A stretch of 64,000 bases of DNA. Source: an uncultured Chloroflexia bacterium (GTDB taxonomy: Bacteria > Chloroflexota > Limnocylindria > Limnocylindrales > CSP1-4). The position numbers and the translations under genes were made by a program. The DNA lies in the NCBI GenBank assembly GCA_963764515.1, contig CAVXSS010000002.1, positions 480,052 through 544,051 of the forward strand, in the 5' to 3' direction. Positions 46,965-63,990 of this stretch are shown piece by piece (the first letter of the stretch is position 1; the number at the start of each line of letters is the position of its first letter). The notes beneath the pieces were generated by a model that saw nothing but the letters and a program-made list of their open reading frames with translations, was not told the DNA's origin and searched no databases.

Positions 46965-49900
46965 TCAGTCGAGCGAGGACGTGATCCCAAGCGTCGCTGT
47001 CTTGTGCTGTGACGGCCGCCCACCTGAGTTTCTGACGAACATCTTGATCGAGACGTTGTTGGCTTTGGCGACGCTATCGATCTCGGGCAAGGCGACGGCA
47101 TCGCTTGCATACGCGCTGGCCGCGTTGCAGGAGAGCGGCGACCCGGGACTGCCGTGGGTGGCGAGCAGCGTGGCGCCGTCGTACACCTCGAAGTAATAAC
47201 AAGTCGTGTCGCCAACCGTTGCCGAGCGATACGTGTGGCGGAAGGTCGCGCCGGTGACGACGGAGCCCGCCGGAACGTATGCGGGGAACGTCAGCTTCAG
47301 GTATCGACTGCTATCGAACGATGTCGACCAGCTGGACGTCGAGGTGTATGCGCCATCGCTGACGATGATGACGAACGACTGTACGGCGCTCGTGTCGACC
47401 CCGCCGTTCGCGGTGCCGCCGTCGTCGTGGATCCGGACGCTGACCGTGGCGATACCCGCAGCGCCGGCCGCAGGGGCGTAGGCAAGCGTGCCGGTCGCGC
47501 CGACCGCAGGCTGCGAGCTGAACAGCGGGTTGTTGTCGTTGGTGACGAGGAAGTCGACGACCTGGCCTGCCTCGTCCACCGGACCCGTCGTGATGGCCGT
47601 CGCCCAGCCGCCGACGCTCTGCGCAGCGGCCTCCTGGCGGACGGTCTGGTCGGCGCCCTTGGTGAAGCTCGGCACGTCGTTGACGGCCGTGACGGTGATG
47701 GTCGCGGTCACCGTGTTCGAGTCGAAGGTGCCGTCGTTGGCCTTGTATGTGAAGGTGACGGCTCCGTTCGCGTTGGCGACCGGGGCGTAGCTGAAGGACC
47801 CGTTGGCATTCAGCACCAGGGCGCCCGTGGCGACGTTCGAGACGAGGATCGCACTGAGCGGGTCAGTGTCGGGGTCGGTGTCGTTGAATAGCACGCCGTT
47901 GTAGGGCGTCCCGGTGATCGGCACAACTAGCGTCGTATCTTCCCTGGTCGTGTAGCTGTCCGCGACGGCCGTCGGGGCGCTGGCGATGAGAACCGCGCCG
48001 GATACCGTCGGGGTGCTGCTGTTGCCGACGTTGTCGATGACGACGAGCTGCCAGCGGTAGCAGTTGCCGTTGACCAGGCCGATATGGTTCCGTGGGCTGC
48101 TGCCGGTGTCCGGCGCGCCGTCATTCGCGTAGGACACGCTGGCGCATGTCCCGGGAGTGACCACGCCTCCCTTCTGCCGCTGGAGCGATCGCGAGGCCAC
48201 GCCGGACCCGGTCTCGGTCTCAGACCAGGTGACAGTGACGCTGGTCGCGGACTGGGTGGTCAGGCCCGCGACGGGGATCGAAAAGGTCATCGACGGCGCA
48301 ATGGCGTCCGCGGTGAGGGTGACGGTCCGGGTAGCGCCCGCGGTCAGCACGTTGTTGTAGGGCGTCACGGTGATGTTGGTCGTGGCCGAGGAGGCGGTCC
48401 AGGTGGCGTTCCTGGCCGCCGGGTTGCCGGCGACATCGCCGGAAGCGTAGGTCCATCCCGTTCCAGCGGAGAGCGCACCGTAGTTGTGCTTGTTGATGCC
48501 CGAGGCCGGGTCCGTCGAGCTCGAGGAGAGACTGATGGTGCCCGTGGCGCCGCCCTTGAACCAGATCGCGCTGTTGGGACTCGACTGGTAGACGTTGGTG
48601 CCGGAGCCGGTCACGTTCGGCTGGCTGGGCGCGGTGGTGTCGATCAGTACGGCACCGGACGTGGATCCGGCCGCGTTGCCCGCGAAGTCGGCGAGCGTCT
48701 GGACCCAGCGATAGCAGGTGCCGGTGACGAGCGGACTCTGGGCGACCGAGGAGACGGCCGTGCTGGGAGCGCCGTCGGTGCTCCATGCGGTGGCGGCACA
48801 GGATCCCGGAGAGGACTGGCTGCCCTTCCAACGCTGGAGCGAGCGGCCGCCAGTTGTGGCGACACCGATCCCGCTGCCGTCGCTCTCGGTCCAGGCGATC
48901 GTGTAGCTCGTGGCCGCCTGGAGGGTCGTGGTGCCCTCGTTAGGAGTGGTGAAGTCCGCTGTCGGGGCGGTCGTGTCGAAGGAGACGTTGTCGAAGGTGG
49001 AGGTGTTGAGGGTGCCTGCGACATGCGAGGTGACGACGAGGCCCACGTTGATGGTGCTGCCCATGGTGATGGTCTGCGTCGCGCCCACCGCGGTCCACGT
49101 CACACCATCTGGCGAGCGCTCGGCAAGGAATGTGCTGCCGATCCTGGTCATGCGCACCCAATAGGGCGCGCTGATGCCGCCCAAAACGGTTCCCGTGGCT
49201 GAGGCACCAGTCGTCGCTCGGTAGATCGACTCGGCTCCGGCGGTTCCTTCGATGTCGGCCAACGCCATGGCACTGGTTGCGCCGGTCGTGTCACGGAACA
49301 TGACCCCGCCCTTGGCGGACACCGCCGTGTTCTGGACCGCGAGGACCTTAGCCGTCAGCTGGCCATCGCCGGTCATCGTGCGGTACACGAATTGGAATGC
49401 GTCCGTGGTGCCCCAGATGTCCGCGCCGCCACCTTTCACCGTGTACGTGCCACCGGAGAAGGTCGTGGATCCGACGATGCCGGTGGTGCCGACGTCCCCG
49501 TTGGTCGTGAAGATCCCGAGGGCGTAGACAGTGATGGCGATGGAGTCGGTGTCGGTCAGGTTACCGCCGGAGCCCGTGTTGCCGAGGTCCTTGGTGACGA
49601 CCTGGAGCGTGGCGGCGCCGCTGAAGGTCGAGGTCGGGATAAAGCTGGTCCCGGCCAGGGCAGCATTGATGTTGCCGATCGTCCCGCGGAAGGTCATCGT
49701 CGCGTCGGCGGTGCCGTCTCCGGCGCCCGTGCCGTTGGCGTCGCTGAAGGCGAAGCTCAGGCCGCCGGTGCCCGACAGGCTGACGGTGCCGTTGGTGCCG
49801 GTGAGCTGCACCTGGACCGTCGCTGCAGCGGCGTCGCTGTCGCTGATCGAGATGGGGTTGCCGTTGGCGCTGGAGAAGACCAGGGTCACGCCCTTCGAGG

Positions 49901-52900
49901 TGTCGGCCACCGCGGGCAGGCTGTTGAGCGGCGCGTCGTTCACGGCGTTGACGCTGATCGTGACCGTGACCACGTTGGAGTCGCGGAGGCCGTCATTGGC
50001 CTTGTAACTGAACGAGTCGGTGCCGTTGAAATCCCTGCCGGGCAGGTACGTGAACGAACCGTCGGCGCTGAAGTTGAGGTAGCCGTTGGCCACATCGGAA
50101 ACGAGCAGTGCCGTCAACGGGTCGGACTCCGGGTCCGTGTCGTTGGCGAGCACGCCAGTGCCGACGGCCACAGTCAGCAGCGCGTCTTCGTTGACCGAGT
50201 AGCCGTTGGCGACGGCCGTCGGGGCGACATCGGCGACGACCGTGATCGCGACGTTGTCCGTGTCGCTCAGCGATCCACCGGGGCCGGTGTTGCCCTGGTC
50301 GTTGGTAACGATCTGGAGATTGGCCGAGCCGACATAACCGGCCGTCGGGGTGTAGGTCATGCCCGCCAGCGCGGCGTTGATGTTGGCGAGCGTGCCGGTG
50401 AAGGTCATGGTGCTGTCGGCAGAGCCGGTCCCAACAGTGAACGCCAGCCCGGTCGTGCCGGAAAGGGTCAGGGTTCCGTTCGTGACGGTTAGCTGCTCCT
50501 GCACGCTTGCTGCCCCAGCGTCCACGTCGGAGACGGAGACAAGATTGCCGTTGGCCGTGGAGAAGACGAGGGAGTTATGCGTAGCCTGCGCACCCGGCAC
50601 GCCATTGATGGGAGCGTCGTTGACGGCCGTCACGGTGATGCCGCGCGTGGCGGTGTTGCTGTTCGATGAGCCGTCGTTGGCGACGAACGTGACGGTCCGG
50701 GCGAGCGTGCTGGGTGCATCGCTGGTGTTGGTGTAGGTGATCGACCGGAGGGCCGTCTGGTAGAAGGCCTTGGTCGCACCGCCGGTCAGGGCGAGGACAC
50801 CCGTACCGGCGGTCCAGGTGCCGGTGATGCCGTTCTGGTCGACGAAAGCGAGGGAGTCCTGGGGGTTGGCGTAATTGGTCGTCATCGTGATCGTCGCGGA
50901 GACGAGATTGGCCGAGTCGGCGTCGGTGACGGTGATGCCCGGGTCGAGCAGCACCGCGCCACCGTTCTCCGTGTAGGCCAGTGCGGCGACGGTGGTGGTG
51001 ACCACGGGTGCGGCAGTCGCGGGGTCGGCAATCGTCCAATCTGCGGCGGCAAAGACCGTGATCCCTGTCTGCTGAATCCAGTTGGCCGTCGCATCGCGGG
51101 TGGTGCTCGCCTTGGTGGGGTCCTGCTCGGCCCAGGTACCAGCCAGCTTCCAGAGGCCGACGACGCTCTCCGTGTTGCCGTTGAGCTCCGCGTCCAGGTA
51201 GTGGAGGCGGACCGTGGCCGTGAGCGCGCCGCCGCCGGTCGGCGTGAAGGTGTAGGTCCGGGTGACGGCCCCGGTCTTGGCGGCCGGTGCGGCCTTGACC
51301 AACTTGACCTTGAAGGCGGTCGGCGCGGTGCCGGAGTTGATGGTGATCTGGTTGTGCGGGTTGCCGAAGCAACGCATCGTCCCGGTGCCGATCGTCGTGC
51401 GGCTGACTCCGCCGGTGGCCGACAGGATCGAGGTCACGTCCGTCGTTCCGCTGCACGTCGCCGCAGAGCCGAGCGTCAAGACGTTGGCATTGCCGGCACC
51501 GGAGCCCGTCGAGAGGTCGCCGCTGTCGAGCGACAGCACGCCGTTGACCGTGGCATTTCCGGCCAGCGTCGCGCCGCTCCCGTTGTTCATCCTGAGGTGG
51601 CCATAGGTCACCGCGCTGACGGTTTGAGCCGCGCTCCCGGCGTACTCCACGGTCAGGTTGGTCAGTGTGGTGTTCGTGATCGTGTACTGGTTGCTGAAGC
51701 CGGCGGTGGCCGCCGTCCGCGTGACCTTGACCGTGCCGCTGCCGGTCAGCGTCCCCGAGCCGCTCATCACCGATGCGGCGGCAGGCGTGAACGTGCCACT
51801 GGCGCCGACGGTGAACGTTCCGTTGGCGGCGAAGTTGCCGGTGGCGGAAACGGCCGCTGAGGTGGCGATGGTGAGGCCCTGGAACGTGAGCGTCCCGGCG
51901 TTCGAGATCGATGAACCGTTGTTCATCGTGACGGTGCCGGCGGTTGCTGCCAGGACGGCCGAGGCGTTGACCGTCAGGGCGGTGGCCACGCCGAAGGTCG
52001 CGTTCGAGCTCACGTTGCTGCCGCTGATGACGAGGTTGCCGTAGACCTGGCTGCTGGCGAGCGCCGCCACGGCGGTCGTGGTGCCCGCATACTCGATCGT
52101 GCTGGTCGCGGCGACCGAATGCGTCGCGTAGCCCGCCGGGAACGTCCGCGTGCCGCCGATCTTGAGCGTCGCACCCGCGGCCACGGTGAGCGTTCCGGCG
52201 GGCACCGTTCCTGCAGCCAGCGCGGCCACTTCGACGCCGGTCAGACCGCGGTTGTAGATGCGGAAGTCGTCGACGCGTCCGTCGAAGTACGTATCGGCGG
52301 CGTACTGGGATCGGCCGATCCAGTTGTTGGCCGTGTTGCCCAGGCTCGACGGACCGAGCGTCATGCCGGTGTTCTGGCCCACCTGCGAGCCGTTCACGTA
52401 GAGCGTGCCCGTGTTGCCCGACTTGGTCACCGCCACGTGGACCCATTGGGCGATCGGCAACGCAGCTGTGCCATTGATGACCTGCTCGGTCCCGGCGCCG
52501 CCGGTGGTGATGGCAAAGCGGACGACGTTCGTGCTGCCGTTCTGCGCCGTCAGGAACATGTACGCGGTCGTGCCCGTGCCGTAATCGAAGATCCGCCGCC
52601 AAAGGCCAGTCGTGTCGCGCCGCACCCAGGTCGCGAAGGTGAAGTTGCTGAGCGTGCTGACGATGCCGGTCGGCATGGTGACGTGTTGGTTCGAGCCGTC
52701 GAGGTTGACGGCTTGTCCGATCTGACCGGTGGTGAACGTCGGGGTATTGACCAGCGTGCCATCGAGCCCGGCGCCGCCGCTGTCGGTAGCGTCGTTCTCG
52801 AACTCGTACCACGCGAAGAGTCCGGCCGCGCCGTTGTCGGCTTTGAACGTGCTGAGATCGAAGGTGCCGCCATCGATCCTCAGGTCGCCGATGACGCTCA

Positions 52901-53141
52901 CATCGGCGCCCAGTGTCAGCGTGCCGCTGGACTTGTTGACGACGAGGTCGTTGACCACCGCGGGAAGGCCGTTTCCGGTCGCCTGGGTGCCCGACCCGTT
53001 GTACGTATAGTTCGCGCCCGTCGAGTACGTGCGCGCGCCGGTGACCTGGACGTTCCCGCTCGCGCCGGAGCTGGTGATGCCGTTCGTAGACGTGATGCCG
53101 AGCGTCGCGCCGCTCGACAGGGTGAACGACCCGCGCCCCGG
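46965..53141 (-). CDS. C-terminal ~2058-aa segment (frame C) of a giant secreted subtilase-adhesin
   Basis: This is the ORF 46965..52958 extended upstream in-frame to the TGA at 53142-53144. It contains two LamG/concanavalin-like jelly rolls, repeated Ig-like modules, VNDAP Big_9/cadherin-like repeats and a distinct C-terminal domain. The LamG units read ...WVHVAVTKSGNTGTLYVNGSQ...FDGRVDDFRIYNRGLTGVEV... and ...WVRMTRIGSTFLAERSPDGVTW.... The Ig-like modules read ...GTCYRWVQTLADFAGN... and ...GNCYRWQLVVIDNVGN.... The repeats read ...TDPESDPLTALLV...TVTAVNDAP.... Confidence 0.75.
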   Translation of the reverse strand, partial: PGRGSFTLSSGATLGITSTNGITSSGASGNVQVTGARTYSTGANYTYNGSGTQATGNGLPAVVNDLVVNKSSGTLTLGADVSVIGDLRIDGGTFDLSTFKADNGAAGLFAWYEFENDATDSGGAGLDGTLVNTPTFTTGQIGQAVNLDGSNQHVTMPTGIVSTLSNFTFATWVRRDTTGLWRRIFDYGTGTTAYMFLTAQNGSTNVVRFAITTGGAGTEQVINGTAALPIAQWVHVAVTKSGNTGTLYVNGSQVGQNTGMTLGPSSLGNTANNWIGRSQYAADTYFDGRVDDFRIYNRGLTGVEVAALAAGTVPAGTLTVAAGATLKIGGTRTFPAGYATHSVAATSTIEYAGTTTAVAALASSQVYGNLVISGSNVSSNATFGVATALTVNASAVLAATAGTVTMNNGSSISNAGTLTFQGLTIATSAAVSATGNFAANGTFTVGASGTFTPAAASVMSGSGTLTGSGTVKVTRTAATAGFSNQYTITNTTLTNLTVEYAGSAAQTVSAVTYGHLRMNNGSGATLAGNATVNGVLSLDSGDLSTGSGAGNANVLTLGSAATCSGTTDVTSILSATGGVSRTTIGTGTMRCFGNPHNQITINSGTAPTAFKVKLVKAAPAAKTGAVTRTYTFTPTGGGALTATVRLHYLDAELNGNTESVVGLWKLAGTWAEQDPTKASTTRDATANWIQQTGITVFAAADWTIADPATAAPVVTTTVAALAYTENGGAVLLDPGITVTDADSANLVSATITMTTNYANPQDSLAFVDQNGITGTWTAGTGVLALTGGATKAFYQTALRSITYTNTSDAPSTLARTVTFVANDGSSNSNTATRGITVTAVNDAPINGVPGAQATHNSLVFSTANGNLVSVSDVDAGAASVQEQLTVTNGTLTLSGTTGLAFTVGTGSADSTMTFTGTLANINAALAGMTYTPTAGYVGSANLQIVTNDQGNTGPGGSLSDTDNVAITVVADVAPTAVANGYSVNEDALLTVAVGTGVLANDTDPESDPLTALLVSDVANGYLNFSADGSFTYLPGRDFNGTDSFSYKANDGLRDSNVVTVTISVNAVNDAPLNSLPAVADTSKGVTLVFSSANGNPISISDSDAAAATVQVQLTGTNGTVSLSGTGGLSFAFSDANGTGAGDGTADATMTFRGTIGNINAALAGTSFIPTSTFSGAATLQVVTKDLGNTGSGGNLTDTDSIAITVYALGIFTTNGDVGTTGIVGSTTFSGGTYTVKGGGADIWGTTDAFQFVYRTMTGDGQLTAKVLAVQNTAVSAKGGVMFRDTTGATSAMALADIEGTAGAESIYRATTGASATGTVLGGISAPYWVRMTRIGSTFLAERSPDGVTWTAVGATQTITMGSTINVGLVVTSHVAGTLNTSTFDNVSFDTTAPTADFTTPNEGTTTLQAATSYTIAWTESDGSGIGVATTGGRSLQRWKGSQSSPGSCAATAWSTDGAPSTAVSSVAQSPLVTGTCYRWVQTLADFAGNAAGSTSGAVLIDTTAPSQPNVTGSGTNVYQSSPNSAIWFKGGATGTISLSSSSTDPASGINKHNYGALSAGTGWTYASGDVAGNPAARNATWTASSATTNITVTPYNNVLTAGATRTVTLTADAIAPSMTFSIPVAGLTTQSATSVTVTWSETETGSGVASRSLQRQKGGVVTPGTCASVSYANDGAPDTGSSPRNHIGLVNGNCYRWQLVVIDNVGNSSTPTVSGAVLIASAPTAVADSYTTREDTTLVVPITGTPYNGVLFNDTDPDTDPLSAILVSNVATGALVLNANGSFSYAPVANANGAVTFTYKANDGTFDSNTVTATITVTAVNDVPSFTKGADQTVRQEAAAQSVGGWATAITTGPVDEAGQVVDFLVTNDNNPLFSSQPAVGATGTLAYAPAAGAAGIATVSVRIHDDGGTANGGVDTSAVQSFVIIVSDGAYTSTSSWSTSFDSSRYLKLTFPAYVPAGSVVTGATFRHTYRSATVGDTTCYYFEVYDGATLLATHGSPGSPLSCNAASAYASDAVALPEIDSVAKANNVSIKMFVRNSGGRPSQHKTATLGITSSLD

Positions 53142-53251
53142 TCAAGGTCGTCGTCGTGCCGGCCATCTGGAGCGTCGCGCCGCTGTCGACGATGAAGGCG
53201 ACGTCGTTCGAGACGGTCCCGCCTGACGCGTACGTCTGCACACCCGACCCG

Positions 53252-55780
53252 TTAAAGGTGACGCTGCTCGTGGTGCTCGTGCCGGTCTCGGTCAGCGTTC
53301 CGCCTGAATGGGTGAAGTCGCCGGCGACGTTGAGCGTCACGCTCGCCGCCGATTCGATCGCTGAAGTCGAACGACCCGCTCGAGAGCGAGAAGTTGCCGC
53401 TGACGGACATCGCACGAACGCCGGTGCCGATCGTCCCGCGCAGCGTGCCACCCGTCTGGGAGTAGTCGCCGCCCACGGCCAGGTCACCCGCGGCGTTGTT
53501 GCCCAGTGCGAGCGCGCCGGTGGTGCCGGTACTGGTGACGGTCATGTTCCCGTTCACCGTCCGGAGGTAGCCGCCGAGGCTGAAGGTCGTGGTCTGGTTC
53601 GGGGTGTTCCAGACGAAATCCCAGAACGACTGATTATAGCCGATGTCCGAGGCGCCGCCGCCTGGCGGCGAGGTGTAGCCGACGATCTCGATGGTCGAAC
53701 CCGCGCTCCATGTGGCGGTCGGGATGACGCCGTCCGCCGTCGTCCACGCGTGCTGGTACCGGCCGCCGCTGTTGACGACGATCGTGGCGCCGGTGTTGAT
53801 GGTCACCGTCCCGGCGCTACGGAACGTGCCGGTCACCGACAGGTCGGTACCCGCCCCCGCGTTCAGCGTCAGCGTGATGCCGCTGTTGAGGTCGAGCTCG
53901 CCGCCCGCATCGACGACGACCTCGTCCGCCGTCACGTTGGCAGCGACGGTCACGATGTGGGCGTTACGGATCGTGATCGTGCTGGCCGCATTGGTCGGCG
54001 CGAGGGTCGCGGTGCTCCACGTGACACAGCCGCCGGCGATCGGAGCGCTCTGCCAGGTGCCTGTCGTGGCCCAGTTGCCGCTGGCACGGGAGCGGAAGCA
54101 GTCGGTCGACGTGGAGGCCGCCACGTAGGGACCCACGAAGGGGCCACCGTCGGCGGCTCCGGTGTTGCCGGCCGGGGTGACCGGCTCCGTGGCGGCGTCC
54201 TGCGCCGCGCGAGCGAGGTCGAGGCGGCCGTTGCCGGTCTGGGCCCGCGTGCCGACGGCTGCCGCCGAGCGCGCCAGGCGGCCCACGATGACGGCGTTGC
54301 TGGCGGTGGTGTCGAGGGCCCAGAGGAGGGCCGCGGCACCGGCCACCTCGGCGGCGGCGGCGCTGGTGCCCGAGACGCTGGTGTACTCGTCGTCGGTGAG
54401 CGGGTCCGCGTCGGCGTTCGCGGCGGTGGTCAGGATGTCAACGCCGGGTGCCGCCAGGAAGGTCTGCGGTCCGTGGTTGCTGTCGGCCGCGAGGAGGTCC
54501 GCCTCGTCGGTGGAGGCAACGCCCATCACACCGCGATCGCCGGCGGGGTACGTCGGCGTTGTGACGCCGTCGTTGCCCGTCGCCGCGACGATGACCGCCC
54601 CGCCGTCCCAGGCGTAGTCGATCGCCGCCTGGAGCGCGGCCGAGTAGCCGGGGGCGGAGAACGCGAGGAGGATGACGTCCGCGCCATTGTCCGACGCGTA
54701 GAGGATGCCGCGGATGATGTCGCTGTCCTGGCCCGTTCCGTCCGCGGCGAGAACCGCGACCGGCATGACCCTGACGCCTGCCGAGCCGATGCCGGCGATG
54801 CCCTCGCCATTGTCGGTCGCCGCGGCCACGATGCCGGCCATCCACGTCCCGTGGCCGTTCGGGTCGGTCAGCGGGTCCGTGCCGACAAAGGATGCGCCTG
54901 GGATGGTCCGGCCGAGGAGATCCGGATGCGAGGCGTCGACTCCGGTATCGAGAACCGCGACCAGGGCCTCGCCGTCGGTCGGAACGCGGACCGATGGCCA
55001 GCCGATCCTTGGCAGCGACCACTGGTCCGCGTAGCGAGGGTCAGCCCCGACCGCCTCGACGGCGCGGGCGCGATCGAGCTCCACGTGCACCACGCCCGCG
55101 CGCGCGCGCAAGGCGGCCGCGCCGGCAGTAGCAGCTGCCGCCGGCAGCTCCACGACGGCGAGGCCGAGCGCGGGAACCGTCGAGACGATCATGGCGCCGC
55201 CTGTCGCCAGCGCGGCCGCCTGTTGTTGAGCCGACGTCCATCGATTGAAGGTCACGATGTAGCTCACGGGATTGGTCGTGACCGACGATGGCTCTGGCGG
55301 CGAGGATGCGCCCAGCGGAGAAGGCGCCTGCGTGAGGGGTGCGCCAGGAGCCGGGCCCGGTTCCGGCACGCCGCTCCCTTCGGGCAATGGCATCGGGCTC
55401 GGTTCCGGCGTGATGCTCGCTTCAGGCGGCGACTCTGGGTCAGGGGACGGCTCATCGGGAACGGCCGATGGGTCGACCTCCGGGGGTTCGGTCGGCGTGG
55501 GCTCGGCGGTCGGCGAGGGCTCGGCGGTCGGCGAGGGTTCGGCGGTCGGCGAAGGTTCGGCGGTCGGCGAAGACGACGGATTCGGGGCGACGGATGCGGC
55601 CATGTCGGACGGAACCGGGGTCGCAGGGTGGGCCGCGGTCACGGAGGCCGGCATCAGCACCGTCGCCACGTAGAGAGCGGCCAGCATGCCGGCTCGGATC
55701 CCGGCGGCGCGTGCAGCGCTGGACCGGAACCATCGGGTCCGGATCGACCGCTTCCGGATCATGGGATGTCGAGCCCCCAT
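53252..55780 (-). CDS. N-terminal segment (frame A) of the giant protein: Sec signal peptide, Pro/Ser/Glu-rich linker, S8 subtilisin-like protease domain, then beta-helix-like T/G/S-rich repeats
   Basis: The S8 catalytic triad is VAVLDTGVD (Asp), NGHGTWMAG (His) and SGTSAAAAEVAG (Ser). The last ~35 codons of this ORF (DRIGGERDAQRRRRL...) are post-frameshift noise. Confidence 0.8.
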   Translation of the reverse strand: MGARHPMIRKRSIRTRWFRSSAARAAGIRAGMLAALYVATVLMPASVTAAHPATPVPSDMAASVAPNPSSSPTAEPSPTAEPSPTAEPSPTAEPTPTEPPEVDPSAVPDEPSPDPESPPEASITPEPSPMPLPEGSGVPEPGPAPGAPLTQAPSPLGASSPPEPSSVTTNPVSYIVTFNRWTSAQQQAAALATGGAMIVSTVPALGLAVVELPAAAATAGAAALRARAGVVHVELDRARAVEAVGADPRYADQWSLPRIGWPSVRVPTDGEALVAVLDTGVDASHPDLLGRTIPGASFVGTDPLTDPNGHGTWMAGIVAAATDNGEGIAGIGSAGVRVMPVAVLAADGTGQDSDIIRGILYASDNGADVILLAFSAPGYSAALQAAIDYAWDGGAVIVAATGNDGVTTPTYPAGDRGVMGVASTDEADLLAADSNHGPQTFLAAPGVDILTTAANADADPLTDDEYTSVSGTSAAAAEVAGAAALLWALDTTASNAVIVGRLARSAAAVGTRAQTGNGRLDLARAAQDAATEPVTPAGNTGAADGGPFVGPYVAASTSTDCFRSRASGNWATTGTWQSAPIAGGCVTWSTATLAPTNAASTITIRNAHIVTVAANVTADEVVVDAGGELDLNSGITLTLNAGAGTDLSVTGTFRSAGTVTINTGATIVVNSGGRYQHAWTTADGVIPTATWSAGSTIEIVGYTSPPGGGASDIGYNQSFWDFVWNTPNQTTTFSLGGYLRTVNGNMTVTSTGTTGALALGNNAAGDLAVGGDYSQTGGTLRGTIGTGVRAMSVSGNFSLSSGSFDFSDRIGGERDAQRRRRLHPFRRNADRDRHEHHEQRHL

Positions 55781-56514
55781 GGGATGATCTCCGTTGTGGT
55801 GTCCGCGGCGTCGCGGAACATCACCGGATAGAGGGTGAAACCCTGGTAGGCGGTCGATCCGACGACGGTCGCCTGGTCGATGACCATCGCGGCGTTGCCG
55901 GACTCCTTGCCGAAGATGCGGACGCGCAGGTCGTTCGCGATCGAGGTCGTCGCCGCTGCCGGGATCGACGTCGAGAACGTCGTCGGGGTCGTTCCGGTGA
56001 CGCAGCCGACCGGGCTACCTGGACTGCCGTGCGTCCCGAGGACCGCGCCGGTCGAGATCCTCCGAACCTCGAAGTAGTAACACGCCTGGCCCGCCCCGCT
56101 GCTGGCAAGCCTGAGGTCGAACGTTGCGGCAGAGACGGCCACACCCGAGGCCAACGAATCGTTGAGGTCGAACTCGAGGTACCGGCCGGCCGCGAAGGTG
56201 CTCGACCAGGTCGACGTGGTCACGGTCAGGCCATCGCCCGAATAAGCGAACGAGTTGGAGCGGTCGACCTCGACGCCGGATGATGAATCGCCGACCTCGA
56301 ACGCGGGGGTGACGCGTTCGCCCGGGAACAACGCCTTTGACCCGAACAGGGCCACCCCCTCCGTTTGAGCCGTGAAGATGGCGAGGCTCAGTCCAACCAT
56401 GGCGAAAGCGATGGAGACAAGCGCGCCCACGGCCGCAAACACGATGACGGCACGGAAGCGGCGCCTCGGGGTGGCGATGCCGATCGCGTCTCGCCCTCCC
56501 GCTCGGGCGGTCAT
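55759..56514 (-). CDS. Exported TasA/camelysin-like small protein whose C-terminal ~135 aa is homologous to the C-terminal domain of the giant subtilase-adhesin
   Basis: The N-terminal TM/signal region is followed by LAIFTAQTEGVALFGS, resembling the TasA-type mature N-terminus. The C-terminal region ...GQACYYFEVRRISTGAVLGTHGSPGSPVGC... parallels ...TTCYYFEVYDGATLLATHGSPGSPLSC... at the giant protein C-terminus. It overlaps its neighbours by 4 and 22 bp. Confidence 0.6.
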   Translation of the reverse strand: MTARAGGRDAIGIATPRRRFRAVIVFAAVGALVSIAFAMVGLSLAIFTAQTEGVALFGSKALFPGERVTPAFEVGDSSSGVEVDRSNSFAYSGDGLTVTTSTWSSTFAAGRYLEFDLNDSLASGVAVSAATFDLRLASSGAGQACYYFEVRRISTGAVLGTHGSPGSPVGCVTGTTPTTFSTSIPAAATTSIANDLRVRIFGKESGNAAMVIDQATVVGSTAYQGFTLYPVMFRDAADTTTEIIPWGLDIP

Positions 56515-57062
56515 GGGACCCCTGCCTGCCGGGTAGCGCCGAATGACAGCGTCACGGTTGTAGTCGAGCCCTGGAGCCCGTTATCAGAATCCCACGGCAG
56601 GTCTGCCCGGAAGCACAGGATCTCGGCGGTTGCAGCGGGCAGCGGCCGGCCGTCGACTTCGTTGCCGAACGCCGCGTCATCGAGCGGGCCATCGAACAGG
56701 GTCATGCCGTCGAAGTCCGCGCAGGATGAGCCGATCGTCTTGATCGTGAGGAGCAGCGCCGCCGAGAGACGGTGTCCACCGACTGCCACGAGCCCACGGC
56801 GCATCGCGTACGTCACGGGTTCACGACCGGAGTTCGTCACGGTTATCGAGGCCGCGACCGAGTCTCCGGGAACCAAGTCGCGGGCCGACAGAGTCGCGTC
56901 TCGTGCGTCGGCACTGAGATCGATCGACGAGATCTCGAATCGGTCGGGGGCAGCCACGTCGGCGCGCGGCGGGCTGGATGTGACCGTCTTCCAGGTGAGC
57001 CACGCGCATGCGATCGATAGCACGACGATCAAGGTCACCGCAAGCCGCCGGCTTCGGGTCAT
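56511..57062 (-). CDS. Exported/membrane-anchored small protein (possible SipW-cognate substrate)
   Basis: The 183-aa product has an N-terminal TM segment (LAVTLIVVLSIACAWLTW) and is beta-rich and acidic. It sits between sipW and the TasA-like gene above, with 4-bp overlaps on both sides. Confidence 0.5.
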   Translation of the reverse strand: MTRSRRLAVTLIVVLSIACAWLTWKTVTSSPPRADVAAPDRFEISSIDLSADARDATLSARDLVPGDSVAASITVTNSGREPVTYAMRRGLVAVGGHRLSAALLLTIKTIGSSCADFDGMTLFDGPLDDAAFGNEVDGRPLPAATAEILCFRADLPWDSDNGLQGSTTTVTLSFGATRQAGVP

Positions 57063-57607
57063 GGCGCGATCGGCTCTCGGGCATCAGCCGGGATCGTGCG
57101 GGCGCGCGGCTCGAGCATTTCGAGGAGCACATGGAAGAGGAGGAGTGCGCCGAGGAGGCACAGCGCGGCGAGCACGCCGGGACCCTTTGACAGGAAGTCC
57201 TGGGCGTAGCCGGCGTACGGCACGTACCGGTCCGCGGCCCCGACGATCGCCCGACCGGGAACGAGGCTGGCGTCTGGATCCTGGTTGGCGTCGCCCTTCG
57301 TTTCGAAAAAGCGGCCTTCCGGCAGATCGACCACGCGACTCACGCGGTGGGTCACGACGACCTCGTTGTCGGCGCGGATCGTGATGACGTCGCCGACGCC
57401 GACCGTCATGACGTCGGTCGGGGTGACGACGACCAGGGAGCCGATCGGGATCGCGGGCTCCATCGAGCCGCCGACGACGACGAACAGCTGGTGGCCGGTG
57501 AGCGGTGCGAAACGGGTGAACAGAGCGAAGCTGATGAGGAGGACGAAAAGCGATATCCCGATGAGACCGACGGCCCGACGCGCGAGACGGGACGAGCTCA
57601 GGATCAT
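57059..57607 (-). CDS. sipW: Signal peptidase I, archaeal/SipW-type
   Basis: The product has an N-terminal TM segment, then the VVVGGSMEPAIPIGSLVVV catalytic-Ser motif (GSMEP) typical of SipW-type SPases, then ...GDANQDPD.... It also has a C-terminal TM (VLAALCLLGALLLF). Confidence 0.8.
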   Translation of the reverse strand: MILSSSRLARRAVGLIGISLFVLLISFALFTRFAPLTGHQLFVVVGGSMEPAIPIGSLVVVTPTDVMTVGVGDVITIRADNEVVVTHRVSRVVDLPEGRFFETKGDANQDPDASLVPGRAIVGAADRYVPYAGYAQDFLSKGPGVLAALCLLGALLLFHVLLEMLEPRARTIPADAREPIAP

Positions 57608-57679: not shown

Positions 57680-58255
57680 CTAGTTGTTCTGGGTTTGCTC
57701 GGCGTTGAAGGTGAAGGTCGTGACCGCAGTCGCGCCCTGGAACGTTTCGTCGGTGGCAAGCGGGAGGGAGACCCGGATGCAGAGCACGTCGGTCGCGGCG
57801 GCAGCCACGGTCCGATCGCCGGTTCCGTCAGTCGGTGAAACGCTGCCGAACATGACGTTCGAGGCGCCGAGCACTTCCGACGCCTGGAGGACCGTGCCAT
57901 CAAAGTCGTCGCACTTGACGAGCGGAGTGGTGGCGTCCACGGTCCTGACCTCAACGGTCAGGGCTGCGTTGAGCACGCCGCCGTTCGGGCCAGCCACGCT
58001 CGTCGACGTGGTGTTCAGCGAGTAGCGGAGCTCATTGGTCCCGACGTTCTCGACGTCGACTGAGCCGGTGTTGGAGTCACCAGGCATCATGTTGGCATTC
58101 GTGAGCGAGAGGGCGTCGATCTTCGTCGCGTCGAGGATGATCGTCCCCGCAGTGAACGTCCCGTCGACGGTCTCGGTGTCCGTGAACACGGCTAGGGACG
58201 TCGCCCCGACACCGATGCTCGCGACTGTGAGGGCGGCCCCGAGAGTGAGAAGCAT
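57680..58255 (-). CDS. TasA/camelysin-family (peptidase M73-like) exported protein with SipW-cognate-type signal peptide
   Basis: The ORF 57680..58813 was trimmed to the ATG at 58255. The 191-aa product reads MLLTLGAALTVASIGVGATSLAVFTDTETVDGTFTAGTIILDA..., matching the TasA-family signal peptide plus AxF(T/N)D mature N-terminus, and is beta-rich. It is the first gene of the sipW operon. Confidence 0.75.
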   Translation of the reverse strand: MLLTLGAALTVASIGVGATSLAVFTDTETVDGTFTAGTIILDATKIDALSLTNANMMPGDSNTGSVDVENVGTNELRYSLNTTSTSVAGPNGGVLNAALTVEVRTVDATTPLVKCDDFDGTVLQASEVLGASNVMFGSVSPTDGTGDRTVAAAATDVLCIRVSLPLATDETFQGATAVTTFTFNAEQTQNN

Positions 58256-58578
58256 GCGTCTGCGCTTGGTGTCCAAGGTGGTTCTCGTTTCTCTACATGC
58301 GTTGCGGTGGGTCGCCGAGCGATCGCCATGTCGCCGGCTTCGCCGGGGTCCTTGGCTCGCGCGGTCGATGCCATTACAGGACACGAAGGTGGTACCCGTA
58401 AGTACCCGAATTCCGCGCGACGTCAAAACTATCGAGTGCCGGCTGGTGCCGCGGCGGTCCATCGAACGTGATGCGCCGTTCAGATGGGCGTTGTCCGCGC
58501 ACGAGGGCCTTCGCGTGTTGCGTGGATGCCTACAGGATCGGGCACCGCTCGAAGCGCCCGATGTAGTACTGATGGCTG

Positions 58579-58917: not shown

Positions 58918-60054
58918 CTAGTTGACGGGCTGTGATGCGAGCGTCGTGAGGTCGATGGTCTCGTCGCCAGCCACGACCGCGGCATCATATCTGCGCTGGA
59001 GGTTCGTCACGAGTCGAACCACCGTGTTGCCGCAGACTCCGGTCGACAGGTAGACCCGCAGCCACTCCGGAGTTATGTCCATGCGGAATTGCTGTCCGAC
59101 GTGAAGGTCAACGACTTCCGCCTCTGCGAACTGGTCGTTCACCAAGCGGGGGACGGCCCAAAGCCGGAACGGATCGCGACACGAGAAGAGGCCTGTCAGG
59201 AATTGACCCATATCATCGATCCGGCGACCGAAGCTGATCTGCAGGACGTGCCCCTCGAAGCCAAAGCCGCTTTGCTCAGAGCCCTCCCAGCCAATCGAGA
59301 AGTGCCGCTCGATGTGCCGTACCGCCTGGGCGTATGCCTGAACGGCGCCGGCCATGAAGCCCAAGTGGAGTTCGAAGGCGGCGCCACGGGCGGCGAAGCG
59401 CCCTTGATAGTGGGCTGCTTCGTCGACCACTCCGAGATCCGGATCGCGCATCCGAAGGGCCACTCCGCTTAAGGCTGTCGACAGGCGATACCGGTCGTCA
59501 CCGATGAGCTGATCGAGCAACTCATCCGCCGAATCGCCCTCAAGCTGCACCCGAAGACGCCGCGCGCGAACTCCCTCCAAGGGCAAGAGTTCGTCGCCCC
59601 GGAACTCCGACTTGAACCATCGCGGCTCACCGGCACCCTGCAACCCACGAAGGAACTGCCAGGGGAACCAGCACCAGTCAATGCCCCGTGACGACCAGAC
59701 TGCTCGTCGCAGCTGACCCTGCACGATTCCCGCGGGAGCCGCTGTATGAATCAACCAAAATCGTGGATCAAGGACGTCAACGAAGAGCCCAACGGAGTCA
59801 TCCCACAGAAGAGCCAAAGCTGGATCGTCGGTCCGAGACATCGAGAGGCCAAGTCTTCTCCCGAGGGCTGCGACAGCATCAAGAGGGTTAGGCTCTTCGT
59901 GCCCGGAGTTCACCTCTAGGGCATAGCTCTTGACCTCGCCTGCACGCAGCTCAAACGGAAGGCGATCGGGTTCTCGGCGCTGACCCGACATTGCTGCTGT
60001 CAGAAGACCAGCGATACCCTCGCGGTCGATCGGCACGGATGGGACAGCCGTCAC
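58918..60054 (-). CDS. Hypothetical 378-aa protein, no family recognisable by eye; lower-GC gene
   Basis: The ORF is intact and has GC of roughly 58-60% against ~70% in the flanking DNA. It begins 3 nt after the stop of the upstream gene, so it is operonic. It contains an RHIERH (Rx4H) stretch and a Trp-rich segment WCWFPWQF, but no confident motif. Confidence 0.55.
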   Translation of the reverse strand: MTAVPSVPIDREGIAGLLTAAMSGQRREPDRLPFELRAGEVKSYALEVNSGHEEPNPLDAVAALGRRLGLSMSRTDDPALALLWDDSVGLFVDVLDPRFWLIHTAAPAGIVQGQLRRAVWSSRGIDWCWFPWQFLRGLQGAGEPRWFKSEFRGDELLPLEGVRARRLRVQLEGDSADELLDQLIGDDRYRLSTALSGVALRMRDPDLGVVDEAAHYQGRFAARGAAFELHLGFMAGAVQAYAQAVRHIERHFSIGWEGSEQSGFGFEGHVLQISFGRRIDDMGQFLTGLFSCRDPFRLWAVPRLVNDQFAEAEVVDLHVGQQFRMDITPEWLRVYLSTGVCGNTVVRLVTNLQRRYDAAVVAGDETIDLTTLASQPVN

Positions 60055-61075: not shown

Positions 61076-63990
61076 TCACTCGGGTGGCCGCTCCGCGACC
61101 GCCAAGAGATCGGTAGCGTGCTCAGCGGCTACCGGGTACTCGACGATCGGCGGTTCTGACGGCGGCTCCGTGCCCCACGCCGCCGACAAGACCTCCGCCT
61201 GCTCAAGGACGGTCTGCGTGGCCTTGGTCTGCTTGTCCGGCGGGTAGCCGTACTTGCGCAGGACGCGCTTGACGATTAGGCGGAGCTTGGCGCGGACGCT
61301 CTCCTTCTCGGCCCAATCGATCGTCGTGTTGCGTCGAACGGTTGAGACAAGCTCGCGGGCGATGGTCCGTAGAGTGTCGTCGCCGAGCACGGCGACCGCG
61401 CTGTCGTTCGTCTCTAGGGCGTCGTAGAAGGCGAGTTCGTCGTCGCTCAAGCCGAGCTTCCCGCCGCGCTCTTTGGCCTCGCGGATCTCGCGGGCGATCT
61501 CGATCAGCTCTTCGATGACCGCCGCCGTCTCGATCGCCCGGCTCTGGTACTTGCGGAGCGACCGCTCGAGCATCTCAGAGAACGCTCGCGACTCAACGAG
61601 GTTCCGGCGCGACCGGATCTTGATCTCGTCGGTGAGCAGCTTCCGCAGGAGTTCGACTGCCAGGTTCCTCTGAGGTAGGTCGCGGACCTCTGCCAGGAAC
61701 TCGTCGGACAGGATCGAGATGTCCGGCTTTGGGAGACCGGCCGCCGCGAAGACGTCGATGACCTCCTCACTGACGATCGCGCCGGCGACAATTTGGCGCA
61801 CGGCGTGCTCGATCTCGGCCGGCCCACGCTTGCCCTCCGCCGGGCCTTTGGGCAGCGCGGCACGGACGGCCTGGAAGAAGGCAACCTCATCCCGGAGCGC
61901 GAGCGCACCCTCGTGCGGGACGGCGAGAGCAAAGGCCCTCGACAGGGCGCTCACGCTGGCGAGCAAGCGCTCGCGACCATCCACCTGCGCCAGGACGTAC
62001 TCGAGTGCGGCCGGCAAGACCGACAACCGTTGGGTCGGGGTACCGGTGAAGAACTTCGAGCGGTCGAAGCCGTGGAACAAGCGCGGCCACGACCTCGTAC
62101 TTCTCGTGAAAGACGGCGACCGCCTCGGCCTGGTCGATGGCGGTGGTGCCCTTGCCGCCGCTTCGCGTGTAGTCGGCCATCGCGCGGCGGAGCTGATCGG
62201 CGACGCCGAGGTAATCGACCACCAGGCCGCCCGGCTTGTCCCGATAGACACGGTTGACGCGCGCTATCGCCTGCATCAGGCCATGGCCGCGCATCGGCTT
62301 GTCGAGGTACATCGTGTGCAGGCTCGGCGCATCGAAGCCGGTCAGCCACATGTCCCTCACGATGACGATCCGGAACGGATCCTCGGGATCGCGGAACCGG
62401 CGGGCGAGCACCTCGCGCCGAGCCTTGCTTCGGATGTGCGGCTGCCATGGGAGCGGATCGGATGCCGAGCCAGTCATCACGACCTTGAGCGCGCCCTCGA
62501 CATCGGTCTTGCCGGCCCACTGCGGTCGGATGCGGACAAGCTCGTCGTACAGGTCGACGGCTATTCGCCGGCTCATGGCGACGATCATCGCCTTTCCCTC
62601 GAGGGCATCGACACGCTGCTCGAAGTGCTCGACCAGGTCGGCGGCGACGAGCGACAGGCGCCTGTCGGTCCCGACTAGCGCCTCCAGCGCCGCCCATTTC
62701 GACTTGATCTTCTCCTTGGCGGCGGTCTCCTCGCCCTCGGTTACCTCATCGAACTCGGCGTCGATCCGCGGCTTCTGCTCCTCGGGCAGATCGAGCTTGG
62801 CCAGACGGCTCTCGTAGTAGATCGGGACAGTTGCCCCGTCGTCAACCGCGCGGCTGATGTCGTATACGTCGATGTAGTCGCCGAAGACGGCTGGTGTGCT
62901 GCGGTCGGCGAGCTCGATCGGCGTGCCGGTGAAGCCGATGAACGTCGCGTTCGGCAGCGCGTCGCGGATGTTCTTGGCGAAGCCATAGGACAGGTGCGCC
63001 GTACCGTCTCGGCGCTCAACTACGTGTGCACCGAAGTCGTATTGGCTGCGATGGGCCTCGTCGGCGATAACCACGACGTTGCGCCGATCGGTCAGTAGCG
63101 GGAAATGGTCGCCAATTTCGTCCGGCAGGAACTTCTGGATGGTCGTGAATACGACACCGCCGGCGGCGACCGCGAGGAGCCGCTTGAGATGGGCGCTCGA
63201 CTCGGCCTGGATCGGCTCCTGGCGAAGCAGCTCGGCGCACTGGGCGAAGGTCGACGAAGAGCTGGTCGTCGAGGTCGTTGCGGTCGGTGATGACGACGAT
63301 CGTCGGGTTCTCGAGCGCTGGCTCGAGCACCAGGCGTCCGGCGAAGTAGGCCATCGTCAGGCTCTTGCCCGAGCCCTGGGTGTGCCAGACGACGCCTGCT
63401 CGCTTGTCGCCGTCGGGTCGACTGGCCGTGATGGCCGCCTCGATCGCGTGGTTGACGGCGTGGAATTGGTGGTACCCGGCGAGCTTCTTTGACACGCCAG
63501 CCGGCTCGTCGGCGAAGACCAGGAAGTGACGGAGGTAGCCGATCAGGCGGTCGGGGGCGAGAAGGCCACGGATGAGGACCTCGAGCTCGGTGACGTTCGC
63601 GGGCGCGAGGTTCGCGCCGTCGATCGTCCGCCAGCGCATGAACCATTCGCGACCGGATGTCAGCGAGCCGAAGCGGGCCTCGACGCCGTTCGAGGCGACG
63701 AGCAATTCGTTGTACCCGAAGATCGTCGGGACCTTCGCCTTGTAGGTCTGGAGCTGGTTGAACGCCGACCAGATGTCGGCGCTCTCGGTTGTCGGGTCCT
63801 TGAGCTCGATCAAGACGAGCGGCAGTCCGTTGACGAAGAGGATGACGTCGGGCCGGCGGTTCTCGCCCGCCTCGACGATCGTGAACTGGTTGACCGCCAG
63901 GAAGTCGTTCGCGGCGGGCCGATCGAAGTCGAGGAGACGGATCCGCTCGCCCGCGATCCGCCCGTCGCCAGCGGCGTACTCGACCTCCAC
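61076..63990 (-). pseudogene. hsdR: Type I restriction enzyme R subunit (HsdR), N-terminus beyond the window end, disrupted by two single-base frameshifts
   Basis: Three consecutive track ORFs in different frames together give a colinear HsdR: a nuclease motif FVNGLPLVLIELK; helicase motif [16 protein letters not shown]; [14 protein letters not shown]; motifs III-VI ...IGFTGTP...; and the C-terminal helical domain. The frame switches at ~63245-63252 (LDDQLFVD|FAQCAELL) and ~62078-62086 (YEVVAA|[11 protein letters not shown]). Confidence 0.8.

Follow-up and report, generated by a model that had tools for sequence, protein, structure and literature searches.

The stretch of DNA analysed here (the window) comprises 64,000 nucleotides from an uncultured Chloroflexia bacterium and includes a SipW/TasA-type operon whose genes all lie on the minus strand, a correction to an earlier sequence-only reading. 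A TasA/camelysin-like fibre subunit with a SipW-cognate signal peptide (57680..58276, start approximate; PF12389 E=1e-7, 32.3 bits against a cutoff of 22.5; TIGR04088 26 bits, cutoff 19) precedes a SipW-type signal peptidase I (57059..57607; TIGR02228 E=2e-27, 95.8 bits, cutoff 51.85) and a divergent TasA-like paralogue of 183 aa (56511..57062; TasA phmmer E=2.7e-13, jackhmmer 6e-39). These are followed by the gene for a 251-aa protein (55759..56514, from the translation) and by a gene of about 2,937 codons for a giant secreted protein with several Pfam matches (46965..55780). Read directly from the window sequence, the sipW, 183-aa, 251-aa, and giant genes are joined by ATGA overlaps. The giant begins at the ATG at 55780 or at the one at 55762, of which the latter, overlapping the upstream stop as ATGA, is the more likely start.

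The giant protein consists, in order, of a Sec-type signal, a Pro-rich linker, a prodomain with Peptidase_S8, beta-helix-like repeats, Laminin_G_3, Big_9/cadherin-like repeats, and a C-terminal domain here termed B. It is larger than the 1997-aa open reading frame noted earlier: homology runs on across three reading frames of the gene (tblastn), and the full extent of about 2,937 codons to 46965 includes two frameshifts in this assembly. The first apparent frameshift, from frame -1 to -2, lies near 53355 (53340..53370), where the alignment to the homologue P0258 covers its residues 1386-1625 in frame -1, ending at 53360, and its residues 1607-1690 in frame -2, beginning at 53412. The second, from frame -2 to -3, lies near 53130 (53120..53140) at ...accggggcgcgggtcg..., where frame -2 reads ...TTTTLTGA, frame -3 reads GSFTLSSGATLGITS, and the uninterrupted homologue at locus L013 reads TGTTAVSGSGTFTLAAGGTLGITS. 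Intact homologues include P0258 (2971 aa), P0253 (2096 aa), and the single 1954-aa open reading frame in L013. Given its two frameshifts, the giant gene could be a pseudogene in this genome.

Two copies of one domain are present, one as the final ~131 residues of the giant (46974..47366, ending ...ATLGITSSLD*) and the other in the 251-aa protein at residues 92-222 (55849..56241), with domain HMM E-values of 3e-60 and 1e-53, respectively. The sequence-only reading had placed this shared segment correctly, and the motifs it quoted are present in both the giant (...SWSTSFDSSRYLKLTF...TTCYYFEVYDGATLLATHGSPGSPLSC...NNVSIKMFVRNSGG) and the small protein (...TWSSTFAAGRYLEFDL...QACYYFEVRRISTGAVLGTHGSPGSPVGC...NDLRVRIFGKESGN). 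The pairwise alignment it proposed bears out the homology: the giant's last 171 aa match the 251-aa protein at 45/134 identities (34%), with 55% positives and 4 gap positions (BLASTP, composition-adjusted statistics, E=2e-16). Common to both window copies are a Cys pair, a Trp, RY, YFE, and THGS. An alignment of 48 sequences from both families has four invariant columns (C145, G163, C171, and A193) and a further set conserved at 90% or more (W103, R111, Y112, G124, A130, F132, G142, Y147, F148, E149, L159, T161, S164, and P168). Across 246 domain instances in the wider family, the two Cys are conserved at 94% and 90%, and the pair probably forms a disulfide. T, S, G, and A are abundant in both proteins, a composition from which a chance likeness between secreted proteins might arise; however, the composition-adjusted E-value, the invariant or nearly invariant Cys, Trp, Tyr, His, and Pro positions, and the 267 family members found at E<=1e-10 refute this explanation, which can for practical purposes be dismissed. 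The likeness is not a low-complexity one.

The 251-aa protein opens with a signal/anchor helix ending SLAIFTAQTE (a SipW-type motif), followed by a conserved N-terminal segment, the domain core, and a conserved C-terminal extension ending PWGLDIP. The N-terminal segment of the mature protein (FGSKALFPGERVTPAFEVGDSSSG; 56275..56346) is conserved more strongly than any other part of the 251-aa family, reads FGSKALFPGERVTPA in most orthologues, and is the counterpart of KRIFPGxRSSAAWxLRDASGG in the fused relatives described below. The C-terminal extension (AYQGFTLYPVMFRDAADTTTEIIPWGLDI; 55765..55848) matches the fixed linker of those relatives. The protein has 259 homologues; identity is 65-81% among the 120 matches listed, and the three named homologues in that set are all from Chloroflexota metagenome-assembled genomes (MAGs). 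In an AF2 model, residues 101-240 are all beta, with mean pLDDT per 10-residue block of 71-96 (81-96 inside the domain core), whereas the N-terminal segment, in this model of the 251-aa protein by itself, has block means of 28-48 over residues 51-100, a low confidence that may only reflect a shallow alignment.

The “TasA-like head” formerly ascribed to this protein finds no support. A Peptidase_M73 (PF12389) body is absent by HMM and iterative search, and TIGR04088 gives no match at E<=1, although it accepts the operon's own TasA, whose motif SLAVFTDTETV is closely similar. This signal-peptide motif is the sole resemblance of the 251-aa protein to TasA. Iterative searching from TasA with jackhmmer picks up the adjacent 183-aa protein and misses the 251-aa protein, which is accordingly rejected as a TasA paralogue.

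An exhaustive HMM search finds 321 cluster representatives of the domain family at E<=0.001. The domain occurs as two paralogous subtypes, A and B, always in the order A then B. Among the best 150 of the 321 representatives, 72 are A-B proteins, 22 are A-B proteins with a C-terminal extension, and 18 are A-B proteins with an N-terminal extension; 28 are larger proteins ending in B without A, only 3 carry A alone, and the order B-A is never seen. The usual form is a protein of about 370 aa with a SipW-type signal peptide, an N-terminal strand, copy A, a linker of 27-29 aa, and copy B. This A-B spacing is kept in 189 of 229 fused proteins, with the linker motif FTLY..D.AD..T..W.L. Both window copies share the signature of the A-B family: W..F...RY / C[YW]YFE / THGSxxxPxxC / AN, a jelly roll of about 130 aa, and the A-then-B order. 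Subtype HMMs built solely from fused proteins assign the 251-aa protein to A (182 bits, against 111 for the B-copy HMM) and the giant's C-terminus to B (179 bits, against 119 for the A-copy HMM). All carriers are MAGs; the majority, uncultured Actinomycetota together with one Chloroflexota MAG, have A and B in one protein. Every family member with a recorded source name is labelled “hypothetical protein”, and literature searches returned no description of the A-B module.

In the lineage of the window (Limnocylindrales-type Chloroflexota), the gene is split exactly within the linker. Residues 17-248 of the 251-aa protein align to residues 11-245 of the fused protein at locus L015 (43% identity, E=7e-51), and this alignment stops exactly at PWGL/PWSL; the giant's B domain aligns to residues 245-376 of the same protein (55% identity, E=3e-47). 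The two therefore tile the fused protein without gap or overlap. The A half keeps the signal peptide, N-strand, A domain, and linker, and the linker motif (...FTLY..D.AD..T.PWxL) and N-strand stay highly conserved in the A-only family. The B half now forms the C-terminal end of a secreted subtilase/beta-helix/LamG/cadherin-repeat protein of ~2,900 aa. As in Rosetta-stone (gene fusion/fission) pairs, the parts are separate here and fused in the same order in other genomes, with exact tiling. In contrast to a plain Rosetta-stone fission, the A and B halves are now separated by about 2,800 residues, which precede B and are made up of unrelated domains of secreted proteins (S8 protease, beta-helix, LamG, and cadherin-like repeats).

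Thirty related loci were collected with a pattern derived from a 7-sequence B-type alignment; because the pattern captures only B-type C[WY]Y[FML]E[VT]Y motifs, these loci are a biased sample. The split form, with an A gene followed by an S8 giant that has B at its end, is present in the window and at L001, L005, L006, L008, L011, L013, and L014, and the start of the giant overlaps or abuts the stop of the A gene in 6 split loci. An assembly artefact was considered as the origin of the split and rejected, because no fewer than 8 independent contigs share the layout, including the one that carries the intact 1954-aa giant open reading frame. The co-occurrence with sipW/tasA that the earlier reading wished to see checked by HMM is tight. 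Among 21 loci with enough upstream sequence, 18 have sipW just upstream: in 17 it directly adjoins the A-bearing gene, and in the window one small gene intervenes before the 251-aa gene. Fused AB genes are placed immediately after sipW in uncultured Actinomycetota (order tasA-sipW-AB-tasA2 in 15 loci), and L015 has the order tasA-sipW-AB. An adjoining sipW is undetectable at the L013 cassette (A gene plus giant-B) and at the Fn3-A-B genes of L007 and L009.

The segment is a previously unannotated extracellular beta-jelly-roll domain of ~130 residues with a carbohydrate-binding-module-like (CBM-like) fold. No curated family contains it, as the sequence-only reading had supposed: Pfam and NCBIfam scans of both window domains gave no relevant match and none at E<=1, CBM families included, and a search of all PDB sequences with the domain HMM gave nothing below E=0.18. 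Its nearest structural neighbours are carbohydrate-binding modules. CBM4/CBM22-type modules (e.g., 4mgq, 1gui, 2w5f, 4bj0) share only 6-14% identity with it, without relation at the sequence level, and unlike the domain they occur in glycoside hydrolases rather than in SipW/TasA operons. The fold, a generic CBM-like jelly roll, is not particular to sipW/tasA loci; the sequence family alone is. The hhalign comparison gives a weak local likeness to CBM96 around RYLxFxLPxxVPxGxxVxxAT, with a probability of only 40%. For CBM96 the ligand is alginate or chondroitin sulfate (PMC9971899; title of PDB entry 8wab). The CBM96/DNRLRE models (PF24517, NF033679) match neither window domain at E<=1, although the same libraries find CBM96 in P0152, beside its A-B domains, at E=2.5e-29, and CBM96/DNRLRE (PDB 7VBO, 8WAB) lacks the family signature (Cys pair, C[YW]YFE, THGSxxxP). 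A “third stretch” that the family HMM places inside CBM96 regions is insignificant (E 0.01-1), and CBM96 membership of the domain is not claimed.

Since the closest folds are carbohydrate-binding modules, A and B could act independently on a shared glycan: each would be a CBM for the same matrix or cell-wall polysaccharide, and the small protein and the giant would share the domain to stick to that polymer without binding each other. The local likeness to CBM96 is consistent with this explanation, as are the 22 extended proteins among the best 150 representatives, whose C-terminal extension in the two examined is one or two CBM96/DNRLRE domains. In independent tandem CBMs, however, the linkers are usually variable and flexible and the order of the modules varies, whereas this family keeps a single order, A-B, with a constant spacing of 27-29 aa and a structured linker. 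A is never seen without B at the same locus in these data, and no CBM sequence family matches. On balance, independent glycan binding is a rather unlikely explanation. A rebuilt A-B unit might also bind a glycan, and the two ideas are compatible.

SipW/TasA fibre systems are, to our knowledge, understood almost only in Bacillus. In the tapA-sipW-tasA operon of Bacillus subtilis, TapA (YqxM) is a small accessory protein acting on TasA, to which it donates its N-terminus (PMC10151520). According to the same source, TapA resembles the 251-aa protein in its small size (~250 aa), secretion, beta-sandwich structure, accessory character, and operon with SipW and TasA; it also has a SipW-processed signal and a functionally important conserved N-terminus, and it is tied to fibre nucleation and anchoring. 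A-B resembles neither TapA nor TasA in sequence or fold. By analogy, the A-B module may be a conserved accessory of SipW/TasA-like fibre operons, TapA-like in role and with a SipW-type signal. A rival explanation makes the A(-B) protein a TapA-like nucleator or fibre subunit: by donor-strand complementation, a TasA-like subunit would receive the conserved N-strand that SipW cleavage exposes (KRIFPG.../KALFPGE...), so that A(-B) starts, caps, or decorates the fibre and B on the giant is a mere insertion relic. The gene does lie between sipW and tasA paralogues, the SLA|IFT signal motif matches SLA|VFT of the operon's TasA with a Phe at equal distance downstream, and the N-segment is the best-conserved portion of the 251-aa family. 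Against it, AF2 places the 15-residue N-strand inside the fused protein's own fold (pLDDT 92-97), and variants with Fn3 or beta-helix/PKD before A-B dispense with the KRIFPG half of the strand. The lack of likeness to TapA or TasA weighs in the same direction, as does the clear purifying selection on B in the giants, which keeps every motif residue at 43-82% identity across MAGs. This nucleator role is improbable.

The sequence-only reading had also suggested a recognition module for the locus SipW, and a related explanation is a C-terminal sorting tag, a secretion or processing signal read by SipW in the manner of C-terminal sorting domains. In the giant orthologues no unit ever lies closer to the C-terminus than B, and the family is associated with sipW loci. 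SipW, however, is a type I signal peptidase, as the TIGR02228 match of the window's own enzyme indicates, and acts on N-terminal signal peptides. The domain belongs to the mature protein and, in the giant, lies at the far C-terminus of a protein with an ordinary N-terminal Sec-type signal; the L013 cassette has no adjacent sipW; and CBM96 domains follow B in other family proteins, so B need not be terminal. Such a tag is disfavoured and very improbable.

The reading we prefer is that the 251-aa protein docks at the giant's C-terminal end through A:B, reconstituting the split module of TasA operons; its chances are about even. The earlier suggestion of a partner domain gains strong indirect support from the finding that the copies are halves of a protein fused elsewhere, and the docking itself is what we infer from it. 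The AF2 model of fused P0151, including linker and N-strand, has a mean pLDDT of 91.6 and a pTM of 0.83 (a single global number), which, with the constant 27-29-aa spacing, suggests that A and B form one rigid unit. By Rosetta-stone logic, A would then re-bind the giant's B in trans: the small A protein, once secreted, would re-associate non-covalently with the B domain and rebuild the A-B module. The rebuilt module would link the protease/adhesin either with the TasA-like fibre or matrix or with a glycan on the cell surface to which the CBM-like module binds. A bolder and doubtful extension is that A and B are a natural, cohesin-dockerin-like split-domain docking pair, which would hang a ~2,900-residue protease/adhesin on a SipW-processed small protein integrated through its N-terminal strand into the TasA-like fibres of soil Chloroflexota. 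We know of no description of large enzymes displayed on TasA-type fibre scaffolds.

A conserved, previously unannotated accessory module is now defined for the much more divergent SipW/TasA operons of uncultured soil Actinomycetota and Chloroflexota. The A-B family is a candidate new Pfam/NCBIfam entry that would improve the annotation of many MAG proteins. Its natural split leads to a concrete prediction, namely that the small secreted protein and the giant protease/adhesin interact. If the docking reading is true, it would show how giant surface proteins attach in lineages without known anchoring systems; if the docking-pair reading is also true, TasA-type fibres would be scaffolds that display large enzymes.

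The giant protein of the window ends in a domain (its ORF ends at 46965, minus strand) that recurs in a 251-aa protein encoded in the same operon (56514..55759, minus strand). The last 171 residues of the giant align with the 251-aa protein over 134 residues at 34% identity with 4 gap positions (BLASTP, composition-based statistics, E=2e-16), as an earlier sequence-only reading had proposed. In an alignment of 48 sequences (the window's small protein with 23 orthologues, and the window's giant C-terminus with 23 fragments of others), C145, G163, C171, and A193 are invariant in both families, and W103, R111, Y112, G124, A130, F132, G142, Y147, F148, E149, L159, T161, S164, and P168 are at least 90% conserved. 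These invariant or near-invariant Cys, Trp, Tyr, and other residues, together with the BLASTP similarity, reflect real homology rather than low-complexity Thr/Ser/Gly composition, and chance similarity between the two copies is refuted. The motif CYYFEV-x-THGSPGSP-x-(G/S)C and its Cys pair were correctly described in that reading.

The domain was also rightly left unassigned: neither copy matches Pfam or NCBIfam at E<=1, or PDB sequences below E=0.18. AlphaFold2 (AF2) predicts an all-beta sandwich for the domain (10-residue blocks with mean pLDDT of 71-96 for residues 101-240 when the 251-aa protein is modelled alone). A local profile-profile match to CBM96/DNRLRE spans 41 columns around RYLxFxLP..VP.G..V..AT, but it is weak (probability only 40%); this possible kinship is a lead, not membership.

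An exhaustive HMM search over 1.84 billion cluster representatives recovered 321 family proteins at E<=1e-3 (173 at E<=1e-30). The dominant form, of about 370 aa, opens with a signal peptide of SipW type (…AAF(S/T/N)…), followed by a conserved segment near the N-terminus (KRIFPGxR(S/T)(S/T)xAWxLRDASGG), a first copy of the domain (A), a linker, and a second copy (B) that usually ends ..Y.LD. The linker is structured and of fixed length (27-29 residues in 189 of 229 proteins), with the motif FTLY..D.AD..T..W.L. Among the best 150 of the 321 representatives, 72 are A-B proteins, 22 add a C-terminal extension (with CBM96 domains in the two examined), 18 are extended at the N-terminus instead (by Fn3, or by beta-helix plus PKD; SipW is fused to one), 28 are larger proteins with a lone B as their C-terminal domain, and three have A alone; the order B-A does not occur among them. 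Two loci (L007, 6744-8393, and L009) encode signal-Fn3-A-B proteins with no sipW detected nearby, P0164 is a SipW fused to Fn3-A-B, and P0169 combines beta-helix, PKD, and A-B; all four keep the AWxxRDAS half of the N-terminal strand and lack the KRIFPG half. None of the listed homologues has a precomputed Pfam domain, and those with a source name are without exception labelled 'hypothetical protein'. Metagenomes and MAGs are the source of them all, the few organism names being Gaiellaceae or Chloroflexota, and all carriers of the family are uncultured. A and B might be independent glycan-binding modules, a reading that the CBM-like fold and the co-occurrence with CBM96 favor; it is disfavored by their fixed order and linker and because, in the data examined, every A shares its locus with a B.

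HMMs for A and B were trained exclusively on 55 fused proteins, with the first copy used for A and the second for B. The domain of the 251-aa protein scores 182 bits against the A-HMM and 111 bits against the B-HMM and is assigned to A, whereas the giant C-terminus scores 119 and 179 bits and is assigned to B. By the same scoring, single-copy domains ending large proteins are all of type B. Set against the A-B fusion encoded at a Chloroflexota MAG locus (L015), the 251-aa protein aligns over residues 11-245 (43% identity, E=7e-51), ending at PWGL/PWSL, and the giant C-terminus over residues 245-376 (55% identity, E=3e-47); together they tile the fused protein exactly (gap 0, overlap 0). As a statement about evolution and architecture, it is very probable that a single ancestral protein gave rise to both window copies, each being one half of it.

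Thirty loci were fetched from GTDB species representatives, all MAGs, a sample biased by the B-type motif pattern used to select it. In Actinomycetota, all 15 loci whose flanks are long enough (Thermoleophilia, Gaiellaceae, and others) have the order tasA-sipW-AB-tasA2(-tasA3), and L015 has tasA-sipW-AB; the earlier association of the domain with SipW loci holds. In the window and in seven loci of Limnocylindrales type (L001, L005, L006, L008, L011, L013, L014), an A-only gene instead precedes a giant that bears S8 and ends in B, and in split loci the giant start overlaps or abuts the A gene stop. An artefactual split was rejected because independent assemblies share the arrangement, and in one of them (L013) the giant ORF is intact. 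The A-B module is linked to sipW/tasA and is split, in the window's lineage, into translationally coupled genes. From the tiling and the arrangement of the split loci, it follows that about 2,800 residues of secreted-protein domains sit exactly in the A-B linker of the ancestral operon gene. The cassette occurs twice in one MAG (MFD05513.bin.2.203, L006 and L008), and in L013 (1532-8381) it lies away from any detected sipW.

The window has about 68% GC, and all relevant genes are on the minus strand, in the 5' to 3' order TasA/camelysin-like gene (PF12389, E=1e-7; TIGR04088 SipW-cognate signal peptide above cutoff), sipW (TIGR02228, E=2e-27), 183-aa gene (56511-57062), 251-aa gene, and giant. 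The 183-aa protein is a divergent second TasA-like paralogue that Pfam barely detects (PF12389, E=0.11); its gene precedes the A gene in this lineage, whereas in Actinomycetota the additional TasA paralogues lie downstream of A-B. Stop and start codons overlap as ATGA, always in a ccATGAyc context, at three successive junctions: between sipW and the 183-aa gene (57059-57062), between the latter and the 251-aa gene (56511-56514), and between the 251-aa gene and the giant (55759-55762). These overlaps imply tight co-translation of the four genes as one coupled string.

The giant exceeds the 1997-aa ORF and starts at an ATG at 55762 (or 55780). It comprises a Sec-type signal, a Pro-rich linker, a prodomain with Peptidase_S8, beta-helix-like repeats, Laminin_G_3, and Big_9/cadherin-like repeats. 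Homologues (P0258, 2971 aa; P0253, 2096 aa; and a 1954-aa single ORF in L013) run unbroken through the three frames over which the window's gene is spread, and this gene therefore has two frameshifts, near 53355 (53340-53370) and near 53130 (53120-53140), both in the same direction and both read through by P0258 and L013. A second large gene in the window, hsdR (type I restriction enzyme R subunit, 63990..61076, minus strand; HSDR_N, SWI2_SNF2, T1R_D3-like, T1RH-like_C), is likewise split into three overlapping ORFs in different frames, and a giant orthologue in another long contig is also fragmented; assembly indels at G/C runs are thus a plausible cause, although the giant gene may be a pseudogene in the window. 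Across 48000-56000, compared with the window's remainder, GC skew takes strongly positive values (0.10-0.13) and AT skew is negative, probably because the giant's repeats, rich in Thr, Gly, Ala, and Ser, are encoded on the minus strand. Two adjoining minus-strand ORFs of 378 aa (58918-60054) and 308 aa (60058-60984), which have no Pfam match, separate the broken hsdR from the TasA locus and may be part of a defence island.

The AF2 model of the fused protein P0151, linker included, has a mean pLDDT of 91.6 and a pTM of 0.83 (pLDDT 92-97 in the 15-residue N-terminal strand), and with the near-invariant linker length it makes A-B look like a single rigid body rather than two loosely strung domains. 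In the A-only family the N-terminal strand and the whole linker up to PWGL are strongly conserved, and B in the giants keeps all signature residues. By Rosetta-stone logic, the most likely mechanism, if held at somewhat under even odds, is that the small A protein, once exported, would bind the giant's B domain in trans and reconstitute the A-B module. The earlier proposal of a partner domain gains strong indirect support, since the two copies are halves of a protein fused elsewhere; the docking itself we infer. The proposed TasA-like head of the 251-aa protein reduces to a shared signal-peptide motif (SLAIFT versus SLAVFT). The suggested role of the domain as a SipW-recognition or sorting tag is unlikely: the signals that SipW cleaves are N-terminal, the giant carries a Sec-type signal itself, proteins with B do not always end in it, and no sipW adjoins the cassette in L013.

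TapA of B. subtilis, like the A-B module an accessory of a SipW/TasA-type operon, is described in PMC10151520 as acting on TasA through its N-terminus. Gene position and N-terminal conservation would suit an A(-B) protein that donates an N-terminal strand as TapA does, but AF2 folds this strand into its own protein, and N-terminally extended variants lack the KRIFPG half. Given the conservation of the A-B module in SipW/TasA-like operons and the TapA analogy, reconstitution by docking would couple the giant protease/adhesin with the fibre or matrix, or else with a surface glycan, provided that the CBM-like fold is sugar-binding; attachment specifically to the fibre is less probable than docking. 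The domain is a new, unannotated sequence family whose fold class is known, as is the type of system to which it belongs (SipW/TasA fibre operons), and its natural split across a giant gene is an unusual trait of the A-B family.
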